Below, piece by piece: positions 1 to 50,778 of a stretch of 64,000 nucleotides of DNA. The first letter of the stretch is position 1; each line of letters begins with the position of its first letter. The translations under genes were made by a program, and so were the position numbers. Source of the stretch: Candidatus Nomurabacteria bacterium (GTDB lineage Bacteria > Patescibacteriota > Patescibacteriia > UBA1558 > GWA2-36-10); assembly GCA_020632415.1 (NCBI GenBank), contig JACKFO010000002.1, positions 228,605-292,604 of the forward strand, written 5' to 3'. The notes under the pieces were generated by a model. It was not told the DNA's origin. It worked only from the letters and a program-made list of their open reading frames with translations, and made no database searches.

Positions 1-2
1 CA

Positions 3-80
3 GTAAACAGTTTACCTGAGGGTGAAGATTTACCACAAAACATTCAAACAAACTTAATTGTTGAGTTCTACTCACGTTAA
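3..80 (+). CDS. rpsD: 30S ribosomal protein S4, C-terminal fragment (gene starts upstream of window)
   Basis: Frame-3 translation VNSLPEGEDLPQNIQTNLIVEFYSR* matches the conserved S4 C-terminus (..INEHLIVELYSK in E. coli); lies directly upstream of rpoA as in the alpha operon. Confidence 0.5.
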   Translation, partial: VNSLPEGEDLPQNIQTNLIVEFYSR

Positions 81-130: not shown

Positions 131-904
131 ATGGCCAATCAAATTTCTTTACCAAATAACATTAAGATCACCGATCAAAAAGATAATAACTACCAAGTAG
201 TTATCGAACCTTTTTATCCTGGTTTTGGTGTGACTATTGCCAATTCTTTGCGAAGAGCATTGCTTTCATCACTTCCTGGTGGCGCAGTTACCTCTTTCAA
301 AATTGACGGTGTTCAACACGAATTTGATACTATTGCTGGTGTCAAAGAAGATGTGGTAGAGATTATGCTTAACTTAAAAAAGTTAAGAGTTAGAGTTTAC
401 TCTGATGAGCCAGTAAAAATCACTTTGTCCGCCAAAGGAGAAAAAGTTGTGACTGCAGCAGATATTGCTAAAAATTCTGATGTAGAGGTAGCAAATCCAG
501 AAATGATTATCGCAACTTTGACCGAAAAAAGCAGTCAAATTGAAATGGAAATTACCGTTGAACAAGGTTTGGGCTACGAAACTGTAGAACAAAGAGAAAA
601 ACAAAAGTTAGAAATCGGTACAATCGCCATTGATTCATCTTTTTCACCAATTCTAAATGTTGGTTACAATATTGAAAATGTTCGTGTTGGTAAAATGACC
701 AACTATGAAAAAATAATTCTTGATATTTTGACTGACGGTACAGTTGGCGCCGAAGAAGCAATCAAAGCAGCTGCAACTATTTTGCAAGACCACTTCAATG
801 TTTTGACTGGAGGAGTAGCAGAAGCAGCCGAAGAAGCTGAGGAAGAGGAAGAGGACGAAGAGGAACTTGAAGAAGAATTAGAAGAAGAGGAAGAAGAATC
901 TTAA
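131..904 (+). CDS. rpoA: DNA-directed RNA polymerase subunit alpha, N-terminal (dimerisation/assembly) domain only, with poly-Glu/Asp C-terminal tail
   Basis: 257 aa; alpha-NTD motifs (IEPFYPGFGVTIANSLRRALLSSLPG, VLTGG hinge); no alpha-CTD, ends in EEAEEEEEDEEELEEELEEEEEES. Confidence 0.85.
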   Translation: MANQISLPNNIKITDQKDNNYQVVIEPFYPGFGVTIANSLRRALLSSLPGGAVTSFKIDGVQHEFDTIAGVKEDVVEIMLNLKKLRVRVYSDEPVKITLSAKGEKVVTAADIAKNSDVEVANPEMIIATLTEKSSQIEMEITVEQGLGYETVEQREKQKLEIGTIAIDSSFSPILNVGYNIENVRVGKMTNYEKIILDILTDGTVGAEEAIKAAATILQDHFNVLTGGVAEAAEEAEEEEEDEEELEEELEEEEEES

Positions 905-938
905 GTAAATTTTCCAAGAAAAATAATTTTTAAATACC

Positions 939-1289
939 ATGAGACACAGAAACGTAACCAAGAAATTAGATAGAGAAAAAGCCCCACGTCAAGCGATGTT
1001 GGAGAATTTGGCCACTTCTTTGTTTTTGTATGAAAAAATCCAAACTACTGAAGCTAAAGCTAAGACTGTCAAACCAATAGCTGAAAAAATGATTACTCGT
1101 GCAAAAGTAAAATCAGTTCACAACAAACAACAATTGTCCCGCGTGATTCCTGATAAAAAAGCAGTGCAAAAATTATTAGATGTTTTAGGACCACGTTATA
1201 AAGAAAGAAATGGTGGTTATTGTCGTATTATTAAGATTGGCCCTAGACTTGGCGACGGAGCTCAGATGGTCCAAATTGAATTAGTTTAA
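939..1289 (+). CDS. rplQ: 50S ribosomal protein L17
   Basis: 116 aa; MRHRNVTKKLDR...GDGAQMVQIELV typical L17 N- and C-termini; follows rpoA. Confidence 0.9.
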   Translation: MRHRNVTKKLDREKAPRQAMLENLATSLFLYEKIQTTEAKAKTVKPIAEKMITRAKVKSVHNKQQLSRVIPDKKAVQKLLDVLGPRYKERNGGYCRIIKIGPRLGDGAQMVQIELV

Positions 1290-1303: not shown

Positions 1304-1651
1304 ATGGAAAGAAAATTACATAAAATTGATGCCGCAGACAAAATTGCTGGACGCTTAGCTTCCAAAATAGCTTTTTTGTTACAAGGTAAAAACAAAGTCA
1401 CTTATCAAGCTCATACTGATTGTGGTGACTCTGTGGAAATTGAAAATGTCGCTAAAATGAAATTTAGTGGTAAAAAATTAGAAGATAAAGTTTATCATCG
1501 TGTTACTGGTTATCCAGGTGGTCTTCGCACGACAAAATTGAGTGATTTAATGGAAAATGATCCTGCTGAGGCTTTACGTAAAATGGTTTACAATATGTTG
1601 CCAGTCAATAAATTACGTCCTAAGATGATCAAAAGATTAATTATCAAGTAA
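1304..1651 (+). CDS. rplM: 50S ribosomal protein L13
   Basis: 115 aa; L13 family sequence ([34 protein letters not shown]). Confidence 0.85.
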
Positions 1652-1656
1652 AAACC

Positions 1657-2073
1657 ATGGCTACAGAAAATAAAGATAACAAAGATTACATTCCAGCTGT
1701 CGGTCGCAGAAAAACTGCGATTGCTAGAGTTCGTATTTTGAATCAAAATGTCAAAGGTATTGAAATTACTATCAATGGCAAAGATTACAAAGAATACTTA
1801 CCTTACTTTGAATGGCAAGAAGAAGTTTTGCAACCATTAAAATTAGTTGGTCGTGAAAACATTGCTATTTCAATTAGAGTTTTAGGCGGTGGTCAACGTG
1901 GTCAAGCAGAAAGCATTCGCCATGGTATTGCTAGAGCTTTATTGAAGACTGACGAAACATTACGCCCAACTTTAAAAACTCAAGGTTTGCTTACTCGTGA
2001 CTCTCGTCGTAAAGAAAGAAAGAAACCTGGTTTGAAAAAAGCTCGTCGCGCCCCACAATGGAGCAAACGTTAA
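1657..2073 (+). CDS. rpsI: 30S ribosomal protein S9
   Basis: 138 aa; [19 protein letters not shown] and C-terminal [12 protein letters not shown] are S9 signatures. Confidence 0.9.
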
Positions 2074-15533: not shown

Positions 15534-17405
15534 TTATTTGGTAGTTAATAAAATTTTACCAGCCCTCACTTGCTCACTTATTTCTGAGTCAAGATTTGAC
15601 CAGCTAATTAGATTTTCTAAAAATATTTTTTTCTCATCAGATTTCATTAGTGATAACTGAACTTTTTCAGAGCTAATTGGAAATAAGTATATTTCTAATT
15701 GGCCTTCTCTTAGATGAATGCCTATAGACAGCTCTTGCTGTGTGTCTTGAGAAAAATATTGATCAAAAACAAAATTTCCTAGAGAATAAAATATTGGCTT
15801 ATTATTATAGATTTCTAGACCCTGAACAACGTGAGGATGGTGTCCGATCAGGATGTCCGCGCCAGCGTCAATGACTTGGTGTGCTAGATTTTTTTGTAAG
15901 TTATTTATCTGATGTTGATATTCGGTTCCCCAATGTATTTGAACGATTACTAGATCGTGTTCATTTTTAGCTTTTTCTATTTTTTTCAGAGCCTGTTCAA
16001 GATCAAATTGTCCATAAACCATACTAAATCCAAGTAAAGCAACTTTTTTGTCAGCAATATTTATTGTTGTAAGACTGCATTGATCAACGGCTCTATCAGT
16101 ACAACCAGAAAAATCTAAGTCAAGTTTTTTAAGATTCTGAGTAGTCTCTTCTAGTCCTCTAGCTCCTTGATCTCCGAGATGATTATTGGCTAGATTAAAA
16201 AAATTGAAAAAATATTTATTTTTTAATTCTGATAAATATTTTGGGTCAGCAGCAAAATCAATTGTAAGTTCCGGTGGATAATGATCGCCGTTGTTAGTCA
16301 AGGCGCTTTCTAGGTTAGCACTCACTAAGTCATTACCCATAAAAAACCGGTTTTCTCCACCAGCTAAATCATCAAAAACATAGCCAAGCCCATTGTTTTC
16401 AAGTTTATTTTTTACATCTCGATCTAGCATCAAGTCACCAAAAAAAAGCAAATTCATCCCATTTTTTTGAAGATTTTCTCCTTTGGAAAAATAATAAAAT
16501 AAATGACTAGTCCCCGCTTCTTCAGGCGTGTCTAATAAATCGCTAGAATTTGTATGAAAAACTAAGTCAGATTTTTTTGCTTCTATTTTTTCTAAGTAAC
16601 TTAAAATAGTATAAATTGAAGCTGGAGAATCTATTTCTAGCTTGTTTACTCGCTCTAGATCAAAATCTTCTATGACACTTTGGCTTAGCTGATCATGAAA
16701 ATCTGCAACGGATAAGGGTTGATAATGTGAAAAATCAACGCTAGCTAAAATCAAAGTTTTTTCCGGGTCAGTATTGTTTTTTAGATAGTCTACCAAGAGA
16801 TCCAAATCTTTTTTTGGTGTATTAGTTTTTAAGATAATTGGTAAGATTTTAGCTTCTGTTAAGCTGTTTTTAATGAAAGGTACCAAACCAGAAATAGAAT
16901 GTTCATTTAAAAATGGCCCTTCTTCAATGCTGATCTCTTTGTTTTGAGCAAGTTGTTTTCCAAGTTCTAAGTCAGGCAATAATTCTCCGTAAGGAGTTTG
17001 CCATTTATTTTGCGAAATAATGATGTTATTTGTCCCCGTCTGATAATGATTTGGTCCGATCAAAATTACTGTCTGATAATCTTTTTTGGCTAAACCCATA
17101 AACCAAGCGGCCACTTTGTCTTTGACGATTAAATGATGCGGAATAATTCCGCCATAAATTTTTTCATTTGCTATTTTTATGCTACTAGTGCCCGCAGTGT
17201 AAGCTTCATCATAAAATGATCTGTTCATATAATAAGAATCGTGACTCTTGAGTATTAATTCTTCGTTTTTTTTCTGCGGATTGGATATTTTTAGCGAGCC
17301 TAAAAGACTATTATTATTGTAATTTAAATAAACATAAATTAGTCCCACTTGTAAGATAAGCAGGACTAAAGTTAGAGTTATTATTTTATGATATTTTTTA
17401 AGCAT
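15534..17405 (-). CDS. Fusion protein: N-terminal MEMO1/AmmeMemoRadiSam-protein-B-like domain plus C-terminal CapA/PGA_cap metallophosphatase-like domain; N-terminal TM anchor
   Basis: 623 aa; Memo motifs GGIIPHHLI, IGPNHY, NEHSISG, SVDFSHY; CapA motifs LVIVQIHWGTEYQHQ, GADILIGHHPHVVQGLEIY, FYSLGNFVFDQ. Confidence 0.7.
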   Translation of the reverse strand: MLKKYHKIITLTLVLLILQVGLIYVYLNYNNNSLLGSLKISNPQKKNEELILKSHDSYYMNRSFYDEAYTAGTSSIKIANEKIYGGIIPHHLIVKDKVAAWFMGLAKKDYQTVILIGPNHYQTGTNNIIISQNKWQTPYGELLPDLELGKQLAQNKEISIEEGPFLNEHSISGLVPFIKNSLTEAKILPIILKTNTPKKDLDLLVDYLKNNTDPEKTLILASVDFSHYQPLSVADFHDQLSQSVIEDFDLERVNKLEIDSPASIYTILSYLEKIEAKKSDLVFHTNSSDLLDTPEEAGTSHLFYYFSKGENLQKNGMNLLFFGDLMLDRDVKNKLENNGLGYVFDDLAGGENRFFMGNDLVSANLESALTNNGDHYPPELTIDFAADPKYLSELKNKYFFNFFNLANNHLGDQGARGLEETTQNLKKLDLDFSGCTDRAVDQCSLTTINIADKKVALLGFSMVYGQFDLEQALKKIEKAKNEHDLVIVQIHWGTEYQHQINNLQKNLAHQVIDAGADILIGHHPHVVQGLEIYNNKPIFYSLGNFVFDQYFSQDTQQELSIGIHLREGQLEIYLFPISSEKVQLSLMKSDEKKIFLENLISWSNLDSEISEQVRAGKILLTTK

Positions 17406-17406
17406 T

Positions 17407-19215
17407 TTAGTGTAAAGCGCCGCCCCACTCTGTCAGGACAAATCCTTCTCGGATTGGAGTTTTAAATGTTTGAGCTTGGACATTTATTTTCTGATCCAAA
17501 GCTCTGTAGTCCATGAAGACGCGAATAATTGTATCTGGCTTTGGACTGACTTCTAGCGGAGCTAGTTGATCAAACTGTTCTTGAGGAACAAAAGTAATAA
17601 AGTAGTAAGGTTTTTCTTGCATTTTTGGTGCCCAGAAATCAATAAATTCATTGTACTCTTGAGCTATTAAACCTTGTTGAGCTAATTTTTCAGTTAAAAA
17701 TTCAATAATATTTTCTCTAGCCACAACAAAACCTTTGTCTGGCATTTGATAATTTAATCCTAAGCCTTCCCAAAATAAATAAGGATAGTTTTTCTGATCA
17801 TCATAGTTATACAAATTTCCTTCAGGATCAGCTTTGACTAGCCAGCCATTTTTGTATTCCGGCTCAGTAATTGTCAGACCATTATTTGGAAAAACTTTGA
17901 CTAAAATGTCAGTAGTTTTTTCAGGATAAAGGTAGATAACCGGCTTGCCCATTTCAACTGGTGGTACATATTTGGCGTTTTTAAACATGATATACTTTCC
18001 AAAAGGATCTTGCCAAAATAAAACTGGATGATCAGCCAAAAACTCTGAAAAACTTGGCTTATCTTGTCCTTCTGGCGAGTAAATAGTGTCGTACATTGAT
18101 TGAAGTAGAGATTTTTGATCGTTAGCTTGTTCTTTTAAATTAATATCAGCTAATTCATAAATAGCATCGCCAGCAAAAGTTTCCCCGGTCTTTTTTATTT
18201 GAGAGTTATTGCTAATAAAATTAGCATAGTCATAACAGCCGACGTCTGGTGAAAAATAAAATGTTTTATTAAACAGATATTCGTTGTTATTATCAGAGTT
18301 GTCGTCAAATGAAATGTTTAGTTTGTATGGTTTTAAGCCAAAATAAGAACTAGGATCTTGGCTTTCTTCGCCGACGAAGTTTAAGTCTAGGATGTAGTTG
18401 ATCGCTGAGTGGTCATTTTGTTCAGCAATATAGCAGTTGTTAACGTTGTCTTTGTAAATAGTAACTTCATCGTTGCTTAAAATTTCTTGAGCGTTATAAT
18501 CACTTAGTATTTTTTTTGGATCGGTTTCGGCTTTGGTAAATTTATTGTTTGTATTTGGGATATTAACAATCTCTGGATTATCTTCTAGATTCTTAATTGT
18601 TATTAAATTATTAAATTTAAATAAACTTCCATAGCTAAAATAAACAAGACTATTTTCATCATTGAGACTCGATTCGTTTTTGATGATTATCAGCTCTCCA
18701 TCATTATTAATAATTCTGCTGATACCATTTGATAAACAAGGGCCTTCACAAGGTAAAGTGGCCAAATACAAATCTTTTCCTTGGTAAGGGCCTTCGGCTA
18801 TTGTTCCGGCGTTATAAAATGAAACACGATTATAGACAAACTCATATAAAGAGCCGTAGTTATCAATAAAATTTTGATTATTGAGTAAGGACTCATTTAA
18901 ATTACTAGTTTTTTCACCAAAAATTTCATTAGCGTTGCTAATTTTGGCCAACCAATTTTTCCAATCAACTCTAATTTCATTTGTTGCTAATTCTTCTTCC
19001 TCTTCTGAACTATTTGTGCCATTAATAATGTTTTGATTTATAATATTTATGTTTTGTTGATTTTCTAAATTAATTTCTGAATTTTTTTTATTAAATAAAA
19101 AATAGACAGTAAGTAAATTACTGATTATTAATAAAATTACTAAAAGCGAGAGTGTGAGTTTAAAGTGATTTTTTTCTGTCTTTATTTCCACACTCTTTTC
19201 TTCTTGAAAATCCAT
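17407..19215 (-). CDS. Hypothetical membrane-anchored secreted protein, Asn/Ser-rich
   Basis: 602 aa; one N-terminal TM helix then low-complexity N-rich region; 1-nt spacing to the downstream Memo-CapA gene (operon). Confidence 0.5.
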   Translation of the reverse strand: MDFQEEKSVEIKTEKNHFKLTLSLLVILLIISNLLTVYFLFNKKNSEINLENQQNINIINQNIINGTNSSEEEEELATNEIRVDWKNWLAKISNANEIFGEKTSNLNESLLNNQNFIDNYGSLYEFVYNRVSFYNAGTIAEGPYQGKDLYLATLPCEGPCLSNGISRIINNDGELIIIKNESSLNDENSLVYFSYGSLFKFNNLITIKNLEDNPEIVNIPNTNNKFTKAETDPKKILSDYNAQEILSNDEVTIYKDNVNNCYIAEQNDHSAINYILDLNFVGEESQDPSSYFGLKPYKLNISFDDNSDNNNEYLFNKTFYFSPDVGCYDYANFISNNSQIKKTGETFAGDAIYELADINLKEQANDQKSLLQSMYDTIYSPEGQDKPSFSEFLADHPVLFWQDPFGKYIMFKNAKYVPPVEMGKPVIYLYPEKTTDILVKVFPNNGLTITEPEYKNGWLVKADPEGNLYNYDDQKNYPYLFWEGLGLNYQMPDKGFVVARENIIEFLTEKLAQQGLIAQEYNEFIDFWAPKMQEKPYYFITFVPQEQFDQLAPLEVSPKPDTIIRVFMDYRALDQKINVQAQTFKTPIREGFVLTEWGGALH

Positions 19216-23399: not shown

Positions 23400-24839
23400 A
23401 TGAATAAAAAAATACAACGTATTTTAAGTTTTACAGTTTTGATTTTTAGTTTGCCAAATTTGGTTTTGGCAGCCAACATTGATTATTCAAATATCATTTC
23501 TGACGCAGAAGCAGAAAACTATCAATCAATGAACCAGGTTCAAATTAGAAATTTTTTACAAAGTAAAAATAGCACTTTGGCTAATTATTGGTATACTGGC
23601 TATAATCCTAGCCCTTTTGAAGAAATTATTCCCGAAGATCAAAGAACAACCGCTGATTATAAACAACGATCAGCAGTTGAAATTATTTATAATGCCGCTT
23701 GGGAAGCTCAGATTAACCCTCAGTTTTTGTTGACTATGTTGCAAAAAGAAATGAGTCTAATTGAAGATCCGGAGCCTACAGAAAGGCAATATGCTTTTGC
23801 TATGGGCTATTATTGTTTTGATGGTCAATCTTGTAATCCTCGTTGGCGTGGTTTTGGCAAACAAGTACGAGCAACCGCCTTGCAGTTTAGAGATTATCTA
23901 GACAACATTGAATCACGTGCTTATCAGACAGGAAAAACTTTTGTCATTGAAGGACAGTCAATTACTCCAGCAAACAATGTCACCGCTGGTCTTTATAACT
24001 ACACACCACATTTACACGGAAATTCTTTATTTAAAACTATTTGGGATCGTTATGAGTTTGGCGGTGAAACAACAGAAGAAATTATTTTAAATGGCGGCAT
24101 TATTCCAGAAGGTTCTTTGGTTCGAGCTCGTGACGGTGAAGATCTAGAAACAATTTTCTTGATCCATAACAATCAAAAGCAACCTTTTGCTTCTAATGCA
24201 GCTTTAGTTTCTCGTTATCATTTAGATCAAGTTTTAAATGTTCCTAGCGCAGAATTAGAAAAATTTCCTTTAGGCGCTAGTATTAATTATCCAGCCTACT
24301 CTATTTTGATGGCACCAAATGGTAATAAATATCTTTTGGATGGCCTAGAAAAAAGACTAATTGCCAACGATGAAGTTTTTAGAAATTTAGGTTTTAATCC
24401 AGCAGAAGTAGAAGAAGTAAGCTCTGAAGAATTGGCAAGTATTGAAGATGGTCAAATCATCGAGGATCCTAGTTTGAGTCCAGTAGCTCAGTTGCTAAGA
24501 GATACCTCTACTGGCGGAGTTTATTATGCAAAAGATGGTAAAAAATATCCGATAGTTGACCCAGAAATCATTAGTATTAACTATCCTGATCTAAAAATAG
24601 TTAATGCCACGACAATTCAGCTTGATCAATTACAAAAAGTAAGTTCCGCTAAAATAAGCGATGGCACTCTTTTAATCAGCGATGAAAGTAATCAGGTTTA
24701 TGTTATTGCTAACGGCAAAAGACGTTGGATCGTTGATCAAGAAACTTTTGAAGGCTTAGGCTATTCTTGGTCAAATATCAAAAAAGTTAGTGATCGAGTT
24801 TTAAAATTACACCAAGTTGGTGAACCAATAAGTTTATAA
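23400..24839 (+). CDS. Hypothetical secreted protein (signal peptide)
   Basis: 479 aa; N-terminal signal peptide LIFSLPNLVLAANI; no recognisable catalytic motifs. Confidence 0.5.
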   Translation: MNKKIQRILSFTVLIFSLPNLVLAANIDYSNIISDAEAENYQSMNQVQIRNFLQSKNSTLANYWYTGYNPSPFEEIIPEDQRTTADYKQRSAVEIIYNAAWEAQINPQFLLTMLQKEMSLIEDPEPTERQYAFAMGYYCFDGQSCNPRWRGFGKQVRATALQFRDYLDNIESRAYQTGKTFVIEGQSITPANNVTAGLYNYTPHLHGNSLFKTIWDRYEFGGETTEEIILNGGIIPEGSLVRARDGEDLETIFLIHNNQKQPFASNAALVSRYHLDQVLNVPSAELEKFPLGASINYPAYSILMAPNGNKYLLDGLEKRLIANDEVFRNLGFNPAEVEEVSSEELASIEDGQIIEDPSLSPVAQLLRDTSTGGVYYAKDGKKYPIVDPEIISINYPDLKIVNATTIQLDQLQKVSSAKISDGTLLISDESNQVYVIANGKRRWIVDQETFEGLGYSWSNIKKVSDRVLKLHQVGEPISL

Positions 24840-24840
24840 T

Positions 24841-25632
24841 ATGATTGTTTTTGCAAGTTTTGTTCCCCACTCTCCCCTTTTGATTCCAGAAGTGGGTAAA
24901 AATAATCTAGCTCAACTACAAAATACGGTTGATGCTTATCAAAAATTAGAGCAAGATATTTATGCTGCTAAGCCAGATGTTATTTTTTTGATTGCTCGTC
25001 ATGCTGATATTTTGCCAGCCTCTTTTTCGATCAATCAACGTCCAGAAATTAACATTGATTTTAAAAAATTTGGCGATTTGGTGACTAAAATTAAAATAGA
25101 CAATGATATTGCCCTTGGTTATCAAATTAAAGAAGCAGTCGAAACCTCTATGCCGATTACCCTCACTTCACAGGAGTTATTGGACTACAGCGCCGGCGTA
25201 CCTTTGTATTACCTGACTAGACATTTGCCAAAAATCAAAGTTGTTCCGATTAGCTATAGTTCTTTGGACAACCAAAAACATTTTGATTTTGGTAAACACC
25301 TTAAAGAAATGGCTAATCGTTCTGGAAAACGCGTAGCAATAATTGCTGCCGGAGATTTGTCTCATAAATTACATCAAGACTCTCCTGCTGGCTATTCTCC
25401 TCGCGCTCAAGAATTTGATCAACAATTGATGAAAGATTTAAATGAAAATAAAATTGACGATCTTTTGAACTTAGAAAGATCTTTTGTTGAAGAAGTGTCA
25501 GCGATTGATGGTTTTTATTCCTTGCTGATTTTATTAGGAGCAATAAAAAATCTTAATTACCGTTCTGATCGTTTGAGTTATCAAGCGCCATTTGGCATCG
25601 GCTATTTAGTGCAAAATTTTAAACTAAGATAA
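24841..25632 (+). CDS. LigB/MEMO1-superfamily protein (class III extradiol dioxygenase-like)
   Basis: 263 aa; N-terminal FVPHSPLL and AIIAAGDLSHKLH resemble DODA/LigB-Memo metal-binding motifs; assignment tentative. Confidence 0.45.
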   Translation: MIVFASFVPHSPLLIPEVGKNNLAQLQNTVDAYQKLEQDIYAAKPDVIFLIARHADILPASFSINQRPEINIDFKKFGDLVTKIKIDNDIALGYQIKEAVETSMPITLTSQELLDYSAGVPLYYLTRHLPKIKVVPISYSSLDNQKHFDFGKHLKEMANRSGKRVAIIAAGDLSHKLHQDSPAGYSPRAQEFDQQLMKDLNENKIDDLLNLERSFVEEVSAIDGFYSLLILLGAIKNLNYRSDRLSYQAPFGIGYLVQNFKLR

Positions 25633-33036: not shown

Positions 33037-33561
33037 TTAACGAATGCTGATAAAAGTTTCGAAATCCTGGTTTAAATAGTTATAAACATCTTCTGGTGCT
33101 CCGATGCTTAGATTAAAATTAATCAGAATTCCTTTGTTAAGATTTCCTTGCCAATCGGATACTGGAGTCAAAATAAAATTATTTACCTCCACTCTTTCAG
33201 AATTAAGAACATTTTCAAGTGCTTGGCCACCGCCAACATTAGGAATTTCTCTATAAATTAAGTTATTATCTTCTACAACAAAAACAAAATCTTCTCCTGC
33301 TTCGGAATAAAAAATTATTTGTTCTGAGTCGGGTCTAACATCATCAAAAACATTTACGCTGTGAATTTTATTACTAACTTGATTCATAATAAAACGAGCG
33401 TCATTGTAAACCAAATCAGAAGTTTTTAGTTTTTTACGAATATTAAAATTAGCCATGATTAAGCTACTGATTGTAGTCAAAAGCATTGCTGTAATAAAAA
33501 TATAGACCAATGTTTCAATTAGACTAAAAGCTTTTTGGTTGTTTTTTCTTTTTAAAATCAT
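33037..33561 (-). CDS. Type IV pilin-like protein / pseudopilin (prepilin-type N-terminal cleavage/methylation domain)
   Basis: 174 aa; class III signal KAFSLIETLVYIFI. Confidence 0.7.
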   Translation of the reverse strand: MILKRKNNQKAFSLIETLVYIFITAMLLTTISSLIMANFNIRKKLKTSDLVYNDARFIMNQVSNKIHSVNVFDDVRPDSEQIIFYSEAGEDFVFVVEDNNLIYREIPNVGGGQALENVLNSERVEVNNFILTPVSDWQGNLNKGILINFNLSIGAPEDVYNYLNQDFETFISIR

Positions 33562-35456
33562 GGATAAGTAGAATAACTAATCGTCACTTCTTCTAGCGTT
33601 GGTGCTTGTAAATTTGCTTGACTATCTAAAAATAACTTATAACGAAAATATCTTTGATTTAAATGAGCATTATAATTTATTAGCTCTCCAGCAGCGTCAG
33701 AATAATAAGAACTACTACTGCCATCTGGACCTAAATAATTCCAAGGTCCATTAACATTGTTACTGGTGGCAATTTGAAATTTAATATCTGTGTTTCCTGG
33801 TTCTGAACCAGACCAAGAAATCCAATTATAAGTTACTTCGTTGGATCCAGTATCAAAAGTAGAAGATTCAAGTTCACCGTTAGAAGCATAACCACAATCT
33901 GAAACCTCGGTGGAAATAATAAAAAATTCACTACTATTACTACTAGTTGCGGCATAGATTACAGCGCAGTTAGCTGACATACCTAAAACATTTCCACTTA
34001 AATCAAAGCTAGAAACTTCACTGATGCTGCTAGGAAAACTAACGTCAATTACATTTAATTCAGAATTTAAAAAATTTGTTCCCAATAAAGCGTAAGGACC
34101 AACAATGGCGAAAGAATGAATTTTTTCACCAGCCTCATAAGATCCGATGAATACTGGATCTGTTGGATCAGAAATTTCAAAAATAAAGAATTCTGCTCCA
34201 GAGCCATTATTTTCTGTAGAGATGTAAGCTCTGGTTCCCCTGACAAAAACATCAGTGCCTTTTAATGACCCAGGTAGATTATAGCCACCGATAATTTGTA
34301 AATTAGCTGGATTTGTCACATCAACAATTTGTAATTCTTGGCTACTATCTTCAGTTGCTACATAAACATTGTTTCCTGATAGATACAATTCTTTGGTCTG
34401 ACTATTTAAACTAATTTTATCCAACATTTGCGGATCAGTAGGATCAGAAATATTAAAAGAATGCAAATCATCTTCTTGTAAAATATATAATTCTGTTTCA
34501 TTCACTACTAAATCAGAAGCATTTTCATTGCCAGATAAATCAATGCTAGCAACAATATATGGGCTATGAGGATTAGAAATATCAATTACTCTTAACTCAG
34601 CATCATTTTTTTTGGTTGAAAGATAAGCGTAATCACCTTGGGCAACGACCGAGGTCACTGAGCTTCCTATATTTAAAGAGGCTATTTGGTAGGGATTATG
34701 AATATCGCTAACATCTAAGATGTAAAATTCAGAACCAGAAGAATTATTTTCAGTGACTAAATAAGCCAAGTTATTTAATTCATAAACATCGTTTTCATCA
34801 AAATTTCCCGGTAAGTCAAAATTAGCCGTCGTCGTTGCTTGATTCCAGTCTAAAAATCCAGAAAGCAAGGTAATAATTCCTGGAACAGTGGTATCTAAAC
34901 CACCGCTTTGGTTAAAAAATCTAGTTTCATCAGACCATTCACTTTGTCCAGAGCCGCCAATCCAGTCACTTTGACTGAAGCGATCTGCTTGCCAACGACT
35001 AAGATAAGTTTCTAAAGTAACATTTTTTTCATCAGCTCCGCTTAACCAGGAAATGGTAATTGTTATTTTTTTACTATCAGGATCGACAAAACCACTTTCG
35101 ACAATCTCGCCAAAAACATGCCCATTTTCACTACTTGCTCTTTCTACGGGAGCAATATTAATTGTTCTGGTATATTTTTCTTCTAATAATTCGCTGTTTG
35201 CAACTAAATTCCAAGCATTAGAAGCTAATTCTAAATGCCAGTCTCCATTATTTAATTCTGTCCAATCAACTAATTTGATCGCTTCTAAACTTTCGGCAGC
35301 ATAAAAGTAAGCTTTTGTTTTGTTTTCGTTTAATTTCCAGATCTCGGAATTAAAAACGTTCATCGTCAAAATAACTGAAATAATCACGGCGATAAAAGAA
35401 ATTGCTACTAGCAATTCAATTAATGAAAAACCATTTTTTTCTTTTTGAAGAATCAT
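33558..35456 (-). CDS. Large pilin-like protein: prepilin-type N-terminus fused to LVIVD-repeat beta-propeller
   Basis: 632 aa; NGFSLIELLVAISF prepilin signal; repeated motifs ELRVIDISNP, ELQIVDVTNP, EFFIFEISDP, ELNVIDVSFP, EFYILDVSDIHNP. Confidence 0.65.
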   Translation of the reverse strand: MILQKEKNGFSLIELLVAISFIAVIISVILTMNVFNSEIWKLNENKTKAYFYAAESLEAIKLVDWTELNNGDWHLELASNAWNLVANSELLEEKYTRTINIAPVERASSENGHVFGEIVESGFVDPDSKKITITISWLSGADEKNVTLETYLSRWQADRFSQSDWIGGSGQSEWSDETRFFNQSGGLDTTVPGIITLLSGFLDWNQATTTANFDLPGNFDENDVYELNNLAYLVTENNSSGSEFYILDVSDIHNPYQIASLNIGSSVTSVVAQGDYAYLSTKKNDAELRVIDISNPHSPYIVASIDLSGNENASDLVVNETELYILQEDDLHSFNISDPTDPQMLDKISLNSQTKELYLSGNNVYVATEDSSQELQIVDVTNPANLQIIGGYNLPGSLKGTDVFVRGTRAYISTENNGSGAEFFIFEISDPTDPVFIGSYEAGEKIHSFAIVGPYALLGTNFLNSELNVIDVSFPSSISEVSSFDLSGNVLGMSANCAVIYAATSSNSSEFFIISTEVSDCGYASNGELESSTFDTGSNEVTYNWISWSGSEPGNTDIKFQIATSNNVNGPWNYLGPDGSSSSYYSDAAGELINYNAHLNQRYFRYKLFLDSQANLQAPTLEEVTISYSTYP

Positions 35457-35935
35457 TAATTTATTTTCCCCCCATTTTCGATATTGATAAATCTTTTTAC
35501 TTCTGGATTATTTTTATAGATTAGCTCTACTGTTCCGGTATTCGCTGTTTCTCCGCTAAATTTTGTAAAAATTAAATCTGGACTAAAACCACCAATACCG
35601 TCTGATAAACTATTTTCTGGATTTGAAATTAAAGCATTTTTTAGCTCGATTAGTTCATTTTCTTCTGCTAATTCATTGTAGCTATTGCCGCTAAAAATTA
35701 TGTAAGCATTTTCTTCTAAGTGTATGCCCCAATTTTTTTCGTTTTCAGCCGAAATAGCTGCCTGTCTAACTTCGATAATTTTACTTTTAAACTCATCAAC
35801 TTGATTAATTAACAAGACACTACTTTTCCACTGAAAAAAAATAGAATAAGCCATTCCAGTGATAATTCCAGCGATGGCCATGGTTACGATAATTTCAATA
35901 AAAGTTATGCCTTTGTTATTCATTTTATTCACCAA
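35456..35935 (-). CDS. Type IV pilin-like protein / pseudopilin
   Basis: 159 aa; prepilin signal KGITFIEIIVTMAIAGI. Confidence 0.7.
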   Translation of the reverse strand: MVNKMNNKGITFIEIIVTMAIAGIITGMAYSIFFQWKSSVLLINQVDEFKSKIIEVRQAAISAENEKNWGIHLEENAYIIFSGNSYNELAEENELIELKNALISNPENSLSDGIGGFSPDLIFTKFSGETANTGTVELIYKNNPEVKRFINIENGGKIN

Positions 35936-37133
35936 AGCTTAAAGTAAGCTCATACATTGGTCCGATGACCGAGATTGCGATAAAGCCAACCGCTAGACCA
36001 ACCAAAATTAATAAAACCGGCTCAATAATACTCGATAAATTAGCCAAGACATTATCAACTCTTTCTTGATAATAGTCGGCAATTTTTTTTAAAATATCGT
36101 CTAATTCTCCAGTTTTTTCGCCAATCTGGCACAACTGAACGGTCAAGGAAGGAAATAATTTTGGCCTTTGAGTCATTGCTTCAGCTAAAGAAACGCCCTT
36201 TGCCAGCTCAGTGGATATTTCTTGTACTACTTTACGATAGTAAAGATTATTTAAAGTCTTGGCAACAATCTCAAAAGCTTTGACAATTGATAGTCCCGAA
36301 ACTAACAAGGCATTTAGATTTCCAGCAAATCTGGTCAAAGACAATTCTTTGATTAGATTCCCAACAAAAGGAATTTTTAGCAAAAATTTATGCAAAGACA
36401 ATTTTGGTTTTTTTAATTTAAAAATAAAAAATAAACATATTAAAAAAATAAAAAAAGCAATCAAGACAAAGCCGCCATAGTTTTCCATGATATCAATGAC
36501 CGCTCGAATAGCTCGCAAAACAAAAGGCAATTCTATTCCTCCGTCTTCAAAAATACTTACTAGTTGTGGAAAAACAAATAAGGCCAAAAAAATGCTGACG
36601 CCCAATAAAGCAATTAAGACGATTACTGGATACATCATCGCACCAATTACCTTGCTACGTAGTTTTTTTTGAGCCTTTAAGATACTTGCTAAATTACCAA
36701 GGGCATCAGCAAGCATTCCGGTGTTTTCTCCGACCTCTACTGTAGCAATGATCATCTCTGGAAAGACGTCTGGGTATTCTTTCATGCTAACTGATAACAA
36801 CTGTCCGTTTTCAACGCGATCTCTTAGATGAGTGATTACTTTTTGTAAATATTTATTTTTAGTTTCTTTAGCTAAAGTTTCTAAAGCCGGTGTTAGGGCA
36901 AGCCCCGCTTTAAGCATAGTCGATAAGTTATCTAAAAAAAACATTTTTCCAGTAAGATTGACTTTGCCCGTGCGGAATTTAAAAAAATTTTTCTTTTTCG
37001 CCTTTTTTTCTTTAGTAACAAAACTTTCTTTGATTGATTGCGTTTCTTTTTTGACAGGAACCTCTTCTTTAGAAAGAATTTCTTCGCTCGGTTTTGGGGT
37101 ATTATTTAATTGGTTATTTCCCAAATATTTCAT
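35925..37133 (-). CDS. pilC: Type IV pilus assembly / type II secretion platform protein PilC/GspF
   Basis: 402 aa; two GspF-type repeats and three TM segments; Lys-rich N-terminal extension. Confidence 0.8.
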   Translation of the reverse strand: MKYLGNNQLNNTPKPSEEILSKEEVPVKKETQSIKESFVTKEKKAKKKNFFKFRTGKVNLTGKMFFLDNLSTMLKAGLALTPALETLAKETKNKYLQKVITHLRDRVENGQLLSVSMKEYPDVFPEMIIATVEVGENTGMLADALGNLASILKAQKKLRSKVIGAMMYPVIVLIALLGVSIFLALFVFPQLVSIFEDGGIELPFVLRAIRAVIDIMENYGGFVLIAFFIFLICLFFIFKLKKPKLSLHKFLLKIPFVGNLIKELSLTRFAGNLNALLVSGLSIVKAFEIVAKTLNNLYYRKVVQEISTELAKGVSLAEAMTQRPKLFPSLTVQLCQIGEKTGELDDILKKIADYYQERVDNVLANLSSIIEPVLLILVGLAVGFIAISVIGPMYELTLSFGE

Positions 37134-37140
37134 ATTTATT

Positions 37141-38874
37141 TTATTCGTGTCTAATGCTTAAGACTTCGGCAATTGTTGTGATGCCGATCAAAGCTTTTTG
37201 TAGGCCGTCTTCAAAAATGGTAATCATGCCATTGGCGATTGCTGTTTCTTGAATATCAGCAGAAGAAGAATTTTTAATAATTAATTTTTGAACAGCGGGA
37301 ATGTTTTCTAAAATTTCTAAAACACTGATTCTTCCTGAATAACCAGATTGATGACAAGACTTGCATCCTTTTCCTCGATAAAAAGTTAGCTCTGAAAAAT
37401 TCTGATATTTATCCTCTACCCATTTCAAGGCTTTAAATCTTTGCAATAATTCTTCTAGATTTAATTCTTTTCTTAAACTTTCGATTTCTTCCGGACTCAA
37501 ATGGTAACTTTCGATACATTTTAAACAAATTTTTCTCACCAAACGTTGAGCAATTACCACGTTAAGTGTAGAAGCTACCAAAAAGGGCTCCACTTCCATA
37601 TCCAGTAGTCTTGGTGGAGCTCCAGCGGCATTATTGGTGTGCAAAGTAGATAAGACCAAATGTCCGGTTAATCCAGCACGCACGGCAATTTGAGCGGTTT
37701 TATTATCCCTGATTTCCCCGATCATAATCACATCAGGATCTTGTCTTAATAAGGCTCTTAAGCCATTAGCAAAGTCGTAGCCAGCAACTGGATTGACTTG
37801 AGTTTGATTGATTCGATGTACTCCGTATTCTATCGGGTCTTCGATGGTGCAGATGTTTACTTCTTCGGTATTTAAAGTATTCAAAACCGAGTACAAAGTT
37901 GTAGTTTTTCCCGAACCAGTTGGCCCAACAACCAAAATCATCCCAAATGGTTTTTTGATCTGCTGAGTCATGATTTCAATATTTTTTTCAGAAAAACCTA
38001 GGCTTTCTAGACTAAAGTTTTGTGCTTCATCGGTCATCAAACGCAAGACCATTTTTTCTCCATAAAAAGCTGGAATTACTGAAACTCTGACTGATTCTTC
38101 TTGTCCTTCCAAAGAAAAAGAAAAACGGCCATCTTGAGGAACTCGATGTTCGTCTATTTTTAAGTTTGCTAAAATTTTTATTCTCGCGACAATTGCATCA
38201 TGAACCTCAGAAGGAAGTTCTACTTTGTCATGTAATTCTCCATCAATTCTAAAACGAACAACTACGGCGTCAGGCAAAGCCTCGATGTGAATATCAGAAG
38301 CTTGATCAAACAAAGCGTATTCTAAAATAGCATCAACAATTTGGATGATCGGTAAATCTAATTGACTTGGCGTTCCTTGGACTTCTTTAAATTTTTTGTT
38401 GATTATTTCGTGTAATTCTTCATTGATGTTTTTTTGATAAAGTCGAGAAGCAAAATAAAAGTTTTTTTGACTAGTTAAATAAGGAATTATTTCTTTTTTA
38501 AGTTGCTCTTTAACAAAAGTTAAATTTTCTTGATTTAAAGGATTGACAAAGGCCACTTTAATTTTATTTTCTTCTACAGCAAAAGGAATAGCTTGAGATT
38601 TATTAGCGGCGTCTTCACTAAATAAGTTAATTATTTCTTGCTCTAGTTTAATTTTCCTTAAATTAATATAAGGTATTTTTAAAAAATCACTAATTATTTC
38701 ATACAAAAATTGCTCATTAAAAAATCCTCTTTCAATCAAAACTTCTTCCACTCCTCGACGTCGACGAGAGGCATTTTTTTGGGCATTTTCCCAATCAGTT
38801 TCAGTAATTACTTTTTGGTTTAAAAGCAGCTCTTTTATTTTTTCGATTGCAATTGGTAAATTTGAAGAAGCCAT
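37141..38874 (-). CDS. pilB: Type IV pilus assembly ATPase PilB/GspE
   Basis: 577 aa; N-terminal T2SE_Nter-like region; Walker A GPTGSGKTT; GspE motifs; C-terminal Cys tetrad CLKC...CKSC. Confidence 0.85.
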   Translation of the reverse strand: MASSNLPIAIEKIKELLLNQKVITETDWENAQKNASRRRRGVEEVLIERGFFNEQFLYEIISDFLKIPYINLRKIKLEQEIINLFSEDAANKSQAIPFAVEENKIKVAFVNPLNQENLTFVKEQLKKEIIPYLTSQKNFYFASRLYQKNINEELHEIINKKFKEVQGTPSQLDLPIIQIVDAILEYALFDQASDIHIEALPDAVVVRFRIDGELHDKVELPSEVHDAIVARIKILANLKIDEHRVPQDGRFSFSLEGQEESVRVSVIPAFYGEKMVLRLMTDEAQNFSLESLGFSEKNIEIMTQQIKKPFGMILVVGPTGSGKTTTLYSVLNTLNTEEVNICTIEDPIEYGVHRINQTQVNPVAGYDFANGLRALLRQDPDVIMIGEIRDNKTAQIAVRAGLTGHLVLSTLHTNNAAGAPPRLLDMEVEPFLVASTLNVVIAQRLVRKICLKCIESYHLSPEEIESLRKELNLEELLQRFKALKWVEDKYQNFSELTFYRGKGCKSCHQSGYSGRISVLEILENIPAVQKLIIKNSSSADIQETAIANGMITIFEDGLQKALIGITTIAEVLSIRHE

Positions 38875-42721: not shown

Positions 42722-44488
42722 TTACTCTAAAATGGCCTTGATTCTTCTGATTCCAGCAGAAGAAGATTCCTCTTTTTGAATCTTAAAATGACCCAAAACT
42801 CCAATATTTTCAACATGTGGGCCGCCGCAAATTTCTCGACTAAAGAAATTATCATCCTCCCCTACGGTATAAACTTTGATTTTTTCTCCATATTTATGAC
42901 CAAAAAGCCCAATTGCTCCTCTTTCTTTGGCCTCTTCAACAGTCATTTCTTGATAAGAGACTGGTAAATTTTTAGCAATTTGCTGATTGACTAAATCCTC
43001 TACTTCTTTAATTTGTTCAGAAGTCATTTTTTCAGGATGAGTAAAGTCAAAACGCATTCGTTCTTGATTAATATTACTGCCACGTTGTTCGACGTGTTCT
43101 CCTAAAACTGTTCGTAAAGCTTGGTGCAAAAGATGAGTGGCAGTGTGATATTTGGTACTCATTTCACTATCATCAGCTAATCCGCCTTTGAACATCCCGG
43201 CTGAAGCAGTGCGAGATAATTCTTGATGTTTTTCAAATTCTTTTTGATAATCGCTTTCTGATAATTCAAGTCCTTGTTCTTTGGCAAGCTCTAAGGTCAT
43301 TTCCAAGGGAAAACCAAAAGTGGCAAATAAATTAAAAGCTGCTTTTTCATTTAGAGATTTTTCAGCTAATAATTTTTCAAATTGTTTCAAGCCTTTCTGG
43401 ATTGTACTTTCAAATTTTTCTTCTTCTTTTTGTAATTCATCTAAAATAAATTTTTCTCGAGTTTTTAATTCAGGATATTCTTCTTGAAACATTTCAATCA
43501 CTACAACGGCAATTTGTGCGCAGAAATTGTCTTGAATTTCTAAATTTTTTCCAAAACGAATAGCTCGACGAATAACACGTCTCAAAACATATCCTTGGCC
43601 AGTATTTGATGGAGCCATGCCCTGTGGATCACCCAAAAGAAAAGTAGCGCTACGTAGATGATCAGCGATCACTCGAAAAGCCTTGAGGTTGTTTTGATAT
43701 TTTTTGCCAGATAATTCCTCTATTTTTTGAATAATTGGCAAAAATAAATCAGTTAGATAATTATCGTCCAAATTATTCAAAACAGCCAAAGTTCTTTCTA
43801 GACCCATGCCAGTATCAATGTTTTTTTGCTCTAAAGGTAAATATTTGCCTTCAGGAGTCTTATTGTATTCCATGAAAACATTATTCCAAATTTCTACCCA
43901 AGTATCATCTGCTGGATCAAAAGTTTCTGGCACAGCATTTTTGTCACCAGTCCAATAAAAGATTTCGGTATCTGGACCACAAGGACCGCTAGTTCCGGCT
44001 GGGCCCCACCAATTATCTGTTAATTTGGCAATCTTATTCTTTGCAAGGCCTAATTTTAACCAATGCTCTTCTGCTTCTTGATCAAAATCTTTAATATCTT
44101 GATTGCCACCAAAAATAGTAACTGCTAAAAATTTAGAGTCGATTTTTAATTCAGAAGTTAAAAATTTCCAAGCTAAATCAATTGCTTCGATTTTACCGTA
44201 GTCTCCTAAGGACCAATTACCGAGCATCTCAAAAAAGGTATGATGCGTTTTATCACCAACTTCTTCAATATCTCCGGTACGCCAACATTTTTGTACGTCA
44301 GCAAGACGAGTCCCTGAGGGGTGTTTTTCCCCCATCAAATAAGGCACCAAAGGATGCATGCCGGCAGTGGTAAATAAAACTGTCGGGTCATTTTCTGGAA
44401 TCAAAGAAGCCGAAGACAAAATGGCATGGTTATTATTTTCAAAATATTTTAAGAATTTTTCTCGTAATTCTTTTCCACTAATTATCAT
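42722..44488 (-). CDS. alaS: Alanine--tRNA ligase, short form (catalytic plus tRNA-recognition plus editing-core, lacking C-Ala domain)
   Basis: 588 aa; N-terminal AlaRS signature FTTAGMHPLVPY; editing HxxxH motif HTATHLLHQALR; ends soon after. Confidence 0.8.
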   Translation of the reverse strand: MIISGKELREKFLKYFENNNHAILSSASLIPENDPTVLFTTAGMHPLVPYLMGEKHPSGTRLADVQKCWRTGDIEEVGDKTHHTFFEMLGNWSLGDYGKIEAIDLAWKFLTSELKIDSKFLAVTIFGGNQDIKDFDQEAEEHWLKLGLAKNKIAKLTDNWWGPAGTSGPCGPDTEIFYWTGDKNAVPETFDPADDTWVEIWNNVFMEYNKTPEGKYLPLEQKNIDTGMGLERTLAVLNNLDDNYLTDLFLPIIQKIEELSGKKYQNNLKAFRVIADHLRSATFLLGDPQGMAPSNTGQGYVLRRVIRRAIRFGKNLEIQDNFCAQIAVVVIEMFQEEYPELKTREKFILDELQKEEEKFESTIQKGLKQFEKLLAEKSLNEKAAFNLFATFGFPLEMTLELAKEQGLELSESDYQKEFEKHQELSRTASAGMFKGGLADDSEMSTKYHTATHLLHQALRTVLGEHVEQRGSNINQERMRFDFTHPEKMTSEQIKEVEDLVNQQIAKNLPVSYQEMTVEEAKERGAIGLFGHKYGEKIKVYTVGEDDNFFSREICGGPHVENIGVLGHFKIQKEESSSAGIRRIKAILE

Positions 44489-49029: not shown

Positions 49030-50778
49030 TTAAAATTTTATTACTTCTCCTGGTTTTAAAGTTTTTTCTTGACTGTTGTTTTGAGCACTAGTATTTACTG
49101 GTGGAATTTTATTTAAGTTGGGATTCATTTTTAAAGCTTCTGACAAAGAAATAAAACCATCTTCTTTGTCTTCAATCTCTTCTTTTTTGTCTGCATTTTC
49201 AGAAACAATTTTAATATTTTTTGGTGAAGGTATCTTTCCTTGTTTGGATAAATTTAAACATTCTTTACAATAAATTGGTTTGTTCGGATCTGGATCAAAG
49301 TTGATTTCCGTCTCTTTGCCACAAAAAGAACAAATCACGTCTTTTTTAAAACCTTTATTTTTAGATTTCGATCTTTTGTTATCTTTATTCTCTTTTGATT
49401 TATTTGTGGTTTCTGCAGTCTTTTCTTTTGGTTTTGAATTTAAAGTAGAGTTAGCATTTGTTTTTGCTTTAGCTTTTACTTCTTCATCAATTTCTGACTT
49501 ATTTTCACTCCAACGAGTAATTTTTTCTTCAATTAATTCCCTTGGTTTAGCATAACGCTCTCGTGAAACAGAAATTACCTTACTTCTCACCTCAGGATTG
49601 CTATAAGAAACATCTATTGGTGGCAAAGTTTTCGCAGAAAAAGCCTCAGAGGCTACGCCATCGATCATTAGCTTCAAATAAACTTCATATTTAGTCAAAT
49701 TGACGAGATCAGTTTGCGTAAAATGTGGAAAAAATTCTTTTTCTAAAAATTCAGCATCAGTAGCGCCTACCCGAAAAGAAACTAGAGTCCCGACATTACC
49801 AAAAACCGCAGCTTGCACAGCTTCTTCCACTTGTTCAATGTATTGGTGGGCTAAAATTAAATTTAAACGATATTTTCTAGCTTCTGACAAAATGCCAGCA
49901 AAAGATTCAGTAGCAAAATTTTGAAACTCATCGACATAAAGATAAAAATCTTTACGTTCATTTTCAGGAATATTTACACGACTCATTGCCGCTAGTTGCA
50001 ATTTGGTAATCATCATTGCTCCTAACAAAGCTGAATTGTCCTCGCCAACTCTACCTTTGGCTAAATTTAAAAGTAAAATCTTTTGACCATCCATAATTTC
50101 TCGCATCGCAAAAGAAGATTTTACTTGACCCAAAATATTTCGAACTAAAGCAGAAGATAAAAATCTGCCAACCTTATTTTGAATCGGGGCAATTGCTTCA
50201 CTTTGAAAACGATCAGGATATTTAGAATATTCATCCACCCAAAATGATCTAACTACTGGGTCAGTGACTTTTTCTAAAACTCGATTACGAAAGGATTTGT
50301 CTACCAAAATTCTCATGATCCCCAACAAAGTTGAACCAGGATATTCAAGCAAAGCCGAAATCGCATGATGCAAAACATACTCTAAACGAGGTCCCCAGGA
50401 ATCAGCCCAAATTTTCTTGAAAACACCGATCAAACCAGAAACCACCAAATGTCTTTCAGCTTCATTGACGTTTTCCAAAACATTGAAAGCAATCGGAAAA
50501 TCCAAATCAGAAGGATTAAAATAAACAACGTCATTGATTCGAGATGCTGGAATAAAATCAATCACCTTTTCTACCAAATCACCATGAGGATCAATCACAC
50601 AAACACCATGACCGGCTTGAATATCCTGAATAATCATGTTCTCTAGAGCCGTTGATTTGCCCATGCCAGTTTTTCCAATAAAATACATATGACGACGTCG
50701 ATCGTCAGTTTTGATTCCAAATTTAACTTTGGAATTACGGAAATTAGTTTGAGCAAAAAAATTAATATCTTGACTCAT
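49030..50778 (-). CDS. FtsK-HerA superfamily P-loop ATPase, TraD/VirD4(T4CP)/HerA-like, with C-terminal Lys-rich linker and zinc ribbon
   Basis: 582 aa; Walker A GKTGMGKS, DPHGD motif, Walker B YLYVDEFQNF, ARKYRLNLILAHQ; C-terminal CSFCGKE...CKEC; paralogous to the C-terminal half of 60490-62931. Confidence 0.6.
   Translation of the reverse strand: MSQDINFFAQTNFRNSKVKFGIKTDDRRRHMYFIGKTGMGKSTALENMIIQDIQAGHGVCVIDPHGDLVEKVIDFIPASRINDVVYFNPSDLDFPIAFNVLENVNEAERHLVVSGLIGVFKKIWADSWGPRLEYVLHHAISALLEYPGSTLLGIMRILVDKSFRNRVLEKVTDPVVRSFWVDEYSKYPDRFQSEAIAPIQNKVGRFLSSALVRNILGQVKSSFAMREIMDGQKILLLNLAKGRVGEDNSALLGAMMITKLQLAAMSRVNIPENERKDFYLYVDEFQNFATESFAGILSEARKYRLNLILAHQYIEQVEEAVQAAVFGNVGTLVSFRVGATDAEFLEKEFFPHFTQTDLVNLTKYEVYLKLMIDGVASEAFSAKTLPPIDVSYSNPEVRSKVISVSRERYAKPRELIEEKITRWSENKSEIDEEVKAKAKTNANSTLNSKPKEKTAETTNKSKENKDNKRSKSKNKGFKKDVICSFCGKETEINFDPDPNKPIYCKECLNLSKQGKIPSPKNIKIVSENADKKEEIEDKEDGFISLSEALKMNPNLNKIPPVNTSAQNNSQEKTLKPGEVIKF

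Follow-up and report, generated by a model that had tools for sequence, protein, structure and literature searches.

The first gene that lies entirely within the window, as we call the complete 64,000-nucleotide stretch of contig JACKFO010000002.1 from Candidatus Nomurabacteria bacterium that was analysed, is an rpoA which encodes an RNA polymerase alpha subunit of only 257 amino acids (aa). The protein consists of the N-terminal domain (NTD) and a short acidic tail, and it lacks the C-terminal domain (CTD). We regard it as a genuine, lineage-typical alpha subunit of Patescibacteria (also called candidate phyla radiation, CPR) from which the CTD was deleted long ago, leaving an alpha that would act as a scaffold only and a tail that would be a remnant of the interdomain linker. 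We assign this explanation a probability of about 0.72. The truncation itself is genuine and old and is the norm in the lineage, and the gene is unexceptional among its relatives.

The domain that has been kept is a complete alpha-NTD. A Pfam search of the protein placed PF01193 at residues 26-222 (E=1.9e-20) and PF01000 at residues 57-172 (E=1.7e-34), and nothing else. In a phmmer search against the PDB, residues 8-227 aligned with residues 11-233 of E. coli alpha, and so over the full extent of the crystallised NTD. Matches to the NCBIfam rpoA equivalog profiles spanned positions ~4-252 only, out of ~300-340. With 271.4 bits (cut-off 227.8), TIGR02027 identifies the protein as a bacterial RpoA equivalog, and NF003519 was passed as well (282.4 bits, cut-off 277); six further PRK05182 sub-models fell short of theirs, since nothing in the protein matches the CTD part of the profile. 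The models for the archaeal RNA polymerase subunit D and Rpb3 remained far below theirs (NF001988, 40 bits vs. 153; NF011548, 20 bits vs. 194). Across 20 homologues, 64 columns of the NTD are invariant, among them R41 and R42 of the LRR motif, the counterparts of E. coli R44/R45. The AlphaFold2 (AF2) model shows the expected NTD fold, with a predicted local distance difference test (pLDDT) score of 76-90 in the core. From the conservation of the NTD, including R41/R42 of the LRR motif, we infer that the formation of alpha2 and the nucleation of beta and beta' have probably been retained.

A CTD could be found neither in the protein nor in the DNA around its gene. PF03118, the family of the helix-hairpin-helix alpha-CTD, did not match the 257-aa protein even at E<=1, so that the initial annotation of this DNA, which had described a 257-aa rpoA product with an NTD and without a CTD, was correct. 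The two other reading frames over positions 780-960 contain stops and peptides rich in lysine and arginine (K/R) only, and read-through past the TAA stop codon would add nothing CTD-like. It had also been stated that rplQ begins 35 nucleotides (nt) later and that there is no room for a CTD; the second part holds, and the spacer is 34 nt long, with rplQ starting at 939.

The search was extended with a hidden Markov model (HMM) of the CTD, built from the E. coli domain (100% identical to PDB 1LB2_B) and 18 CTDs of related Patescibacteria. It was run without filters (--max) on the six-frame open reading frames (ORFs) of the window and of 80 Patescibacteria loci, which were obtained by taking one genome per species and comprise 79 complete rpoA genes and one that is cut by a contig end. 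The best match in the entire window had E=2.7, compared with 1e-17 to 1e-33 for true Patescibacteria CTDs. Over the window and the 80 loci, the genes that scored were genuine CTD-bearing rpoA genes only, and there was no CTD-like ORF within 3 kb on either side of rpoA in the 61 species with a CTD-less alpha. A stand-alone CTD gene, for which a search of the remaining genome had been suggested, was thus not found in the window, which together with the 10 kb upstream is the part of the 842-kb genome that was covered.

A short rpoA might also result from an error in sequencing or assembly that shifted the frame within the GAA/GAG repeat of the tail, or from a truncated gene call. Indels do arise in repeat-rich tracts of this kind, and the +1 frame of the tract is open over 16 codons. 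Against this, two independent Logan assemblies from different runs (SRR12358676 and SRR12358675) both contain the identical 257-aa protein, which is also carried by the 842,326-bp NCBI contig (Candidatus Nomurabacteria bacterium). The gene order infA-rpsM-rpsK-rpsD-rpoA-rplQ-rplM-rpsI is the same on independently assembled contigs. The gap to rplQ is just 34 nt, and the relatives have a similarly short interval between the rpoA stop and rplQ (-1 to 186 nt, median 8.5, in 60 CTD-less species). The same architecture recurs in more than 160 homologues, which come from many projects. As the protein is identical in independent assemblies and a CTD is encoded in no frame, an artefact is excluded for all practical purposes; the check for a frameshift in the GAA/GAG tract that had been called for gave the same answer. 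A rescue of the CTD by frameshifting or read-through was likewise rejected, since all three frames over 780-960 lead to stops and K/R-rich peptides, and the frame translations of this region gave no evidence of programmed frameshifting in the tract.

The initial annotation had treated the loss of the CTD as a peculiarity of one gene, but it is the trait of a very large clade and has already been mentioned in the literature. We collected the 120 best matches to the protein (62-85% identity) from a collection of 5.8 billion proteins. All 120 carry PF01000 and PF01193 only, and they are 235-282 aa long, save one truncated entry of 194 aa. The sources bear names such as Parcubacteria, Patescibacteria and Pacebacteria. 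In the species sample, 61 of the 79 complete rpoA genes encode a CTD-less alpha (206-289 aa, or 233-289 aa if one call that misses part of the NTD is set aside), and the remaining 18 encode an alpha with a CTD (299-341 aa). All relatives in this sample that are at least 60% identical to the window protein are CTD-less. The CTD-bearing records are named Doudnabacteria, Berkelbacteria and Moranbacteria/Paceibacterota; Komeili-, Magasanik- and Uhrbacteria records are among the CTD-less ones, and these names might point to groups of the ABY1 type. An exhaustive HMMER search over 1.84 billion cluster representatives returned 8,934 matches, and of the best 150, 88 had a CTD and 62 did not. About 40 of these 62 have clean charged tails; the others resemble frameshifted or truncated calls.

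The presence or absence of the CTD was then mapped by Fitch parsimony on two neighbour-joining trees. A minimum of 2 changes was required on the tree of the concatenated S13, S11, S4 and L17 proteins (69 loci) and a minimum of 3 on the tree of the alpha-NTD. On these trees, the CTD-less state appears to be essentially one very large clade together with a small extra group (L043, L046 and L048).

In principle, the function of the missing domain could be provided in trans: a separate gene for an alpha-CTD might lie elsewhere in the genome, or a non-homologous factor that binds upstream DNA might be tethered to the polymerase. For the former, there is space in the genome beyond the window and the 10 kb upstream of it. 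For the latter, the window itself offers a candidate, a conserved 367-aa protein that combines a sigma region 4 with winged-helix and HARE-HTH domains. Residues 30-81 form a region 4 of the primary-sigma type (PF04545), which matches that of a primary sigma factor closely (template modelling score, TM, of 0.86 and 48% identity to region 4 of Thermus aquaticus sigmaA). The HARE-HTH domain (PF05066) at residues 239-302 passes the cut-off of the NCBIfam domain model for the delta subunit (TIGR04567, 43.3 bits, cut-off 42). In the AF2 model (pLDDT 87), the protein is an array of winged helices. Among the matches listed there are 240 homologues; all but a few truncated entries have 329-405 aa, and nearly all have the same architecture, while two of the shorter, truncated entries contain the HARE-HTH domain only. 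The protein is as strongly conserved as RpoA in the same lineage, and the levels of identity between its homologues and the window protein run parallel to those of RpoA. NCBI names it a 'sigma factor-like helix-turn-helix DNA-binding protein' and JGI an 'RNA polymerase delta subunit'. In 11 cases a homologue lies on a contig equal in length to one that carries an rpoA, which is CTD-less in all 11; the CTD-bearing contigs in this comparison were short, so that it is not a fair test.

These observations have to be set against the negative outcome of the CTD scan, both in the window and around rpoA in the 61 CTD-less species. In addition, the AF2 model of the 367-aa protein does not contain an alpha-CTD fold, no real correlation with CTD loss emerges, and domain homology is the only link to RNA polymerase. 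We therefore consider it improbable that CTD function is provided in trans. The protein itself lies outside the main finding, and we regard it as a candidate for an extra RNA polymerase-associated factor in organisms whose alpha is devoid of a CTD.

The tail that follows the NTD has the sequence VAEAAEEAEEEEEDEEELEEELEEEEEES (residues 229-257). The description of a poly-Glu/Asp tail given in the initial annotation is accurate, as 21 of these residues are aspartate or glutamate (D/E). Its densest stretch of 25 residues contains 20 D/E; the 57 other proteins encoded in the window do not exceed 10 in such a stretch, and the D+E content of the window proteins overall is 12.8%. AF2 models the tail as a low-confidence helix (pLDDT 51-62), which adds little. 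The phmmer search against the PDB placed the tail on the acidic linker that joins the two domains of B. subtilis alpha.

To describe the variation of this segment, 164 distinct CTD-less alphas were compared, with the tail counted from after the invariant Phe222. The tails are 11-67 residues long (median 35), and a median of 56% of their residues are charged. Their net charge ranges from -22 to +12 with a median of 0, and the window protein, at -22, is the most negative of all 164. Purely acidic tails with no more than one basic residue are limited to the window protein and about 10 close relatives (P0002-P0010). Elsewhere the tail is a mixture of lysine and glutamate (K/E), ends in basic residues, bears an AT-hook, or is short and neutral. 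A basic patch such as KKKTTKKKSK is found at the end of 59 of the 164 tails, and nine have a terminal AT-hook core of the form KKRGRPKK or GPGRPKK (P0116, L034, L038, L041, L063, P0243, P0247, P0272 and P0325). The tails of the Uhrbacteria type are short and nearly neutral. The window protein does not have an AT-hook (an R-G-R-P core with basic flanks), and its tail is free of K/R. In the CTD-bearing relatives, the linkers between the two domains are likewise K/E-rich. Taken together, the alignment with the B. subtilis linker, the variability of the tails and the K/E-rich linkers of the CTD-bearing relatives argue that the tail is most probably a remnant of the linker, which now appears to evolve freely as a polyampholyte, rather than a conserved module that has replaced the CTD.

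At positions 831..881 of the window, the +1 frame relative to rpoA reads the GAA/GAG tract as KKLRKRKRTKRNLKKN, followed by a stop. Because this frame is of the K/R type, a single indel would suffice to make a polycationic tail out of the polyanionic one, and such a frame switch could be a simple route to the acidic and basic variants seen among the relatives. AT-hooks bind the minor groove of A/T-rich DNA, as the alpha-CTD does at UP elements. The AT-hook and lysine-rich tails of the relatives could thus be minimal functional substitutes for the CTD. The lineage-specific variants of the tail (polyanionic, lysine-rich and AT-hook) have not been described before.

The initial annotation had put the acidic tail in the place of the CTD and suggested that it might serve as a mimic of DNA or for contacts. 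In such a case the tail would have taken over part of the role of the CTD, either as a nucleic-acid mimic that drives non-specific DNA/RNA off the polymerase, comparable to the acidic C-terminal tail of the Firmicute delta subunit or to sigma-70 region 1.1, or as a docking site for a basic partner. This would fit with the acidity that is kept in the 10 closest relatives despite the divergence of their sequences, with the uniqueness of the tract among the 58 proteins of the window, and with the net charge of about -44 that two tails per enzyme would bring to its upstream face; moreover, the conserved protein with a sigma region 4 and a delta-like HARE-HTH domain is encoded in the same window and does not have the acidic tail of delta. 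However, the acidity is lost beyond a narrow sub-clade, as is evident from the median charge of 0, the 59 of 164 tails with basic ends and the short, neutral tails of the Uhrbacteria type. The segment occupies the position of the B. subtilis linker, GAA/GAG codon repeats can be expanded by slippage without selection, and the partner is purely hypothetical. A mimic of the type found in delta or in sigma region 1.1 would be a long, disordered acidic segment whose acidity is shared by the whole family; here we find 29 residues, as opposed to the much longer tail of delta, and a family with a median net charge of 0. In known RNA polymerase structures, the alpha-NTD to which the tail is anchored is distant from the main DNA channel. 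As the tail is short and its anchor is far from the channel, a channel mimic is unlikely. The comparison of the 164 tails led us to reject the acidic tail as a conserved module, and a functional take-over by the tail is, in general, rather doubtful.

A bolder combination of these elements would be that the system of alpha-CTD and UP elements has been replaced in a major branch of the Patescibacteria. The alpha tail would be evolving towards minimal DNA contacts (lysine-rich or AT-hook) or into a polyanion, the sigma region 4/HARE-HTH protein would act as an extra subunit that provides upstream DNA contacts or sigma-like contacts, and the acidic tail might pair with this basic partner or regulate it. 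We think that there is only a small chance of this being the case.

We therefore return to the explanation that alpha is reduced to its scaffold function. In E. coli, the NTD alone is sufficient for the dimerisation of alpha, core assembly and basal transcription, and the CTD is required for binding to UP elements and for activators that touch alpha (PMC8321222). By analogy, two copies of the window protein would dimerise and nucleate the assembly of beta and beta' as in other bacteria. Without an alpha-CTD, the polymerase would be unable to use its contacts to UP elements, to class I activators and to sigma region 4, and alpha-mediated upstream contacts would be missing altogether. The loss of UP-element recognition and class I activation through the alpha-CTD had been anticipated in the initial annotation, and it is to be expected from the E. 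coli work (PMC8321222). Promoter use would then rest on sigma and other factors. The tail would be disordered, of low complexity and fast-evolving, with a sequence and even a charge sign that are free to vary among relatives, and the pure polyanion would have arisen in this sub-clade. It would act only electrostatically, by keeping the upstream face of the enzyme off non-specific nucleic acid and by adding solubility. Given the overall explanation, this part of it, a disordered linker remnant with an unspecific electrostatic role, is quite likely.

Several points weigh against this explanation or limit it. The tails of the 10 closest homologues (80-85% identical over the aligned part) differ in sequence and yet are all strongly acidic, and this looks like selection on composition rather than a purely neutral remnant. 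The number of losses is uncertain, as the trees were made by neighbour joining from few genes; we do not claim an exact count because the deep branches are short. The CTD scan spans 64 kb plus 10 kb upstream of a genome of 842 kb, and a stand-alone or fused CTD could be encoded elsewhere.

The coordinates of rpoA, its parts and its neighbours are given in Table 1, together with those of the sigma region 4/HARE-HTH protein. The gene has the typical position in the alpha operon, rpsM-rpsK-rpsD-rpoA-rplQ, as judged from the window and from the gene table of locus L081, which belongs to the same organism. In this locus, infA-rpsM-rpsK-rpsD lie immediately 5' of rpoA, and the distance from the end of the S4 gene to rpoA is 50 nt. 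The identical protein at NCBI (P0001) bears the name 'DNA-directed RNA polymerase subunit alpha [Candidatus Nomurabacteria bacterium]'. Scans for Rfam families and tRNAs across the window gave nothing relevant.

Table 1. Positions in the window of the CTD-less rpoA, its neighbours and the sigma region 4/HARE-HTH protein.
Feature	Position	Strand	Evidence and remarks
rpsD (ribosomal protein S4), 3' end; gene 5' of rpoA in the alpha operon	1..80	+	TAA at 78-80; L081 locus
rpoA, 257-aa RNA polymerase alpha subunit without CTD	131..904	+	ATG start, TAA 902-904; Pfam, NCBIfam, phmmer vs. PDB
alpha-NTD, residues 1-228; PF01193 dimerisation domain and PF01000 insert domain; beta/beta' scaffold	131..814	+	
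Polyanionic tail, residues 229-257; 21 D/E, zero K/R; mostly GAA/GAG codons	815..901	+	
rpoA-rplQ spacer, 34 nt; no space for a CTD coding sequence	905..938		
rplQ (L17)	939..1289	+	PF01196, E=1.2e-35
rplM (L13)	1304..1651	+	PF00572; directly 3' of the alpha operon
rpsI (S9)	1657..2073	+	PF00380
Sigma region 4/HARE-HTH protein, 367 aa	52399..53502	-	PF04545 and PF05066 within a winged-helix array

Some other genes of the window deserve mention. In SecD (54514..56181, minus strand), a peptidyl-prolyl isomerase (rotamase) domain of the PpiC type (PF13616/PF00639) is inserted at residues 148-237, between the P1 subdomains, which makes an unusual fusion of a foldase with an accessory subunit of the translocon. 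Two coupling-protein ATPases related to TrwB/VirD4 (PF10412) are encoded on the minus strand at 49030..50778 and 60490..62931; one has a treble-clef zinc finger and the other a TraG-D_C domain. Near them are proteins without a family match (50784..52295, 59799..60428 and 62928..63404). The ATPases and their neighbours may belong to the conjugation-like type IV secretion apparatus that has recently been discussed for Patescibacteria. The alanyl-tRNA synthetase at 42722..44488 (minus strand) comprises the catalytic domain and tRNA_SAD and has 588 aa, where the bacterial enzyme usually has about 870, which suggests another loss of a C-terminal domain in this genome. A 623-aa protein at 15534..17405 (minus strand) is a fusion of a Memo-like domain with a capsule-synthesis domain (PGA_cap); a separate LigB/Memo-like protein is encoded nearby (24841..25632, plus strand), along with large proteins that have no family match (17407..19215 and 23400..24839). 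A type IV pilus cluster (33037..38874, minus strand), typical of CPR episymbionts, contains a PilB-like ATPase (T2SSE), PilC (T2SSF) and two proteins with prepilin-type N-methylation, as well as large LVIVD beta-propeller and PA14-domain proteins.

The textbook accounts of promoter strength, with its UP elements, and of class I and class II activation rely on the alpha-CTD. A large and environmentally abundant clade of ultra-small bacteria without this domain, and thus a group far beyond a few degenerate insect endosymbionts, must recognise and regulate its promoters without contacts of alpha to DNA or to activators, which limits the ways in which transcription factors can act. The finding also bears on the use of rpoA or PF03118 as a universal marker. 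We believe that the lack of an alpha-CTD throughout the clade merits more attention, with the tail variants and the sigma region 4/HARE-HTH protein as testable leads.

In the literature, a natural loss of the CTD has been published for Candidatus Hodgkinia, Candidatus Tremblaya and the rpoA of the Euglena plastid (Rangel-Chavez et al. 2021, PLoS One, PMC8321222). One sentence of the same paper extends this to the Parcubacteria, in which the loss 'is also present'. The statement was not found in the work cited there (Nelson & Stegen 2015), whose main text is silent on RNA polymerase and whose Table S1 includes rpoA only as a core gene. Our literature search found no dedicated study of alpha-CTD loss in CPR, Patescibacteria or Parcubacteria, and a comparative study from 2025 describes the alpha-CTD as ubiquitous in Bacteria (PMC12531629). 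The loss is therefore not new in kind, and a passing remark on it exists for this group, but it is otherwise uncharacterised.

The protein shares features with several known systems. The delta subunit (RpoE) of Firmicutes and region 1.1 of sigma-70 likewise present a polyanionic, disordered segment on a subunit of RNA polymerase, and for these the role of a nucleic-acid mimic is established. The window tail is much shorter (29 aa), sits on an alpha-NTD where the known segments belong to a HARE-HTH domain or to sigma, and stays acidic in close relatives only. Archaeal RpoD and eukaryotic Rpb3-AC40 have the same overall layout, with dimerisation and insert domains and no flexibly tethered DNA-binding domain, but the window protein is bacterial by sequence and is encoded in a bacterial rpsD-rpoA-rplQ operon. 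The closest laboratory counterpart is the truncated E. coli alpha(1-235), which ends at the same domain boundary (residues 8-227 of the window protein correspond to 11-233 in E. coli). Truncated alpha is not known to support the viability of E. coli as the sole alpha. E. coli alpha(1-235) does allow core assembly and basal transcription, and it fails to respond to UP elements and class I activators (Igarashi & Ishihama 1991; Hayward et al. 1991, in PMC8321222). The state in the window is natural, fixed in the lineage and extended by a 29-residue acidic tail. The alphas of Hodgkinia, Tremblaya and the Euglena chloroplast are the natural parallels, in that they have also kept the NTD and lost the CTD (PMC8321222). 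Unlike in Hodgkinia and Tremblaya, the NTD of the window protein is intact and highly conserved rather than eroded, and the loss defines a huge and diverse environmental clade instead of a few insect endosymbionts. In contrast to all three, what remains behind the NTD is a charged tail of low complexity that occurs in lineage-specific variants.

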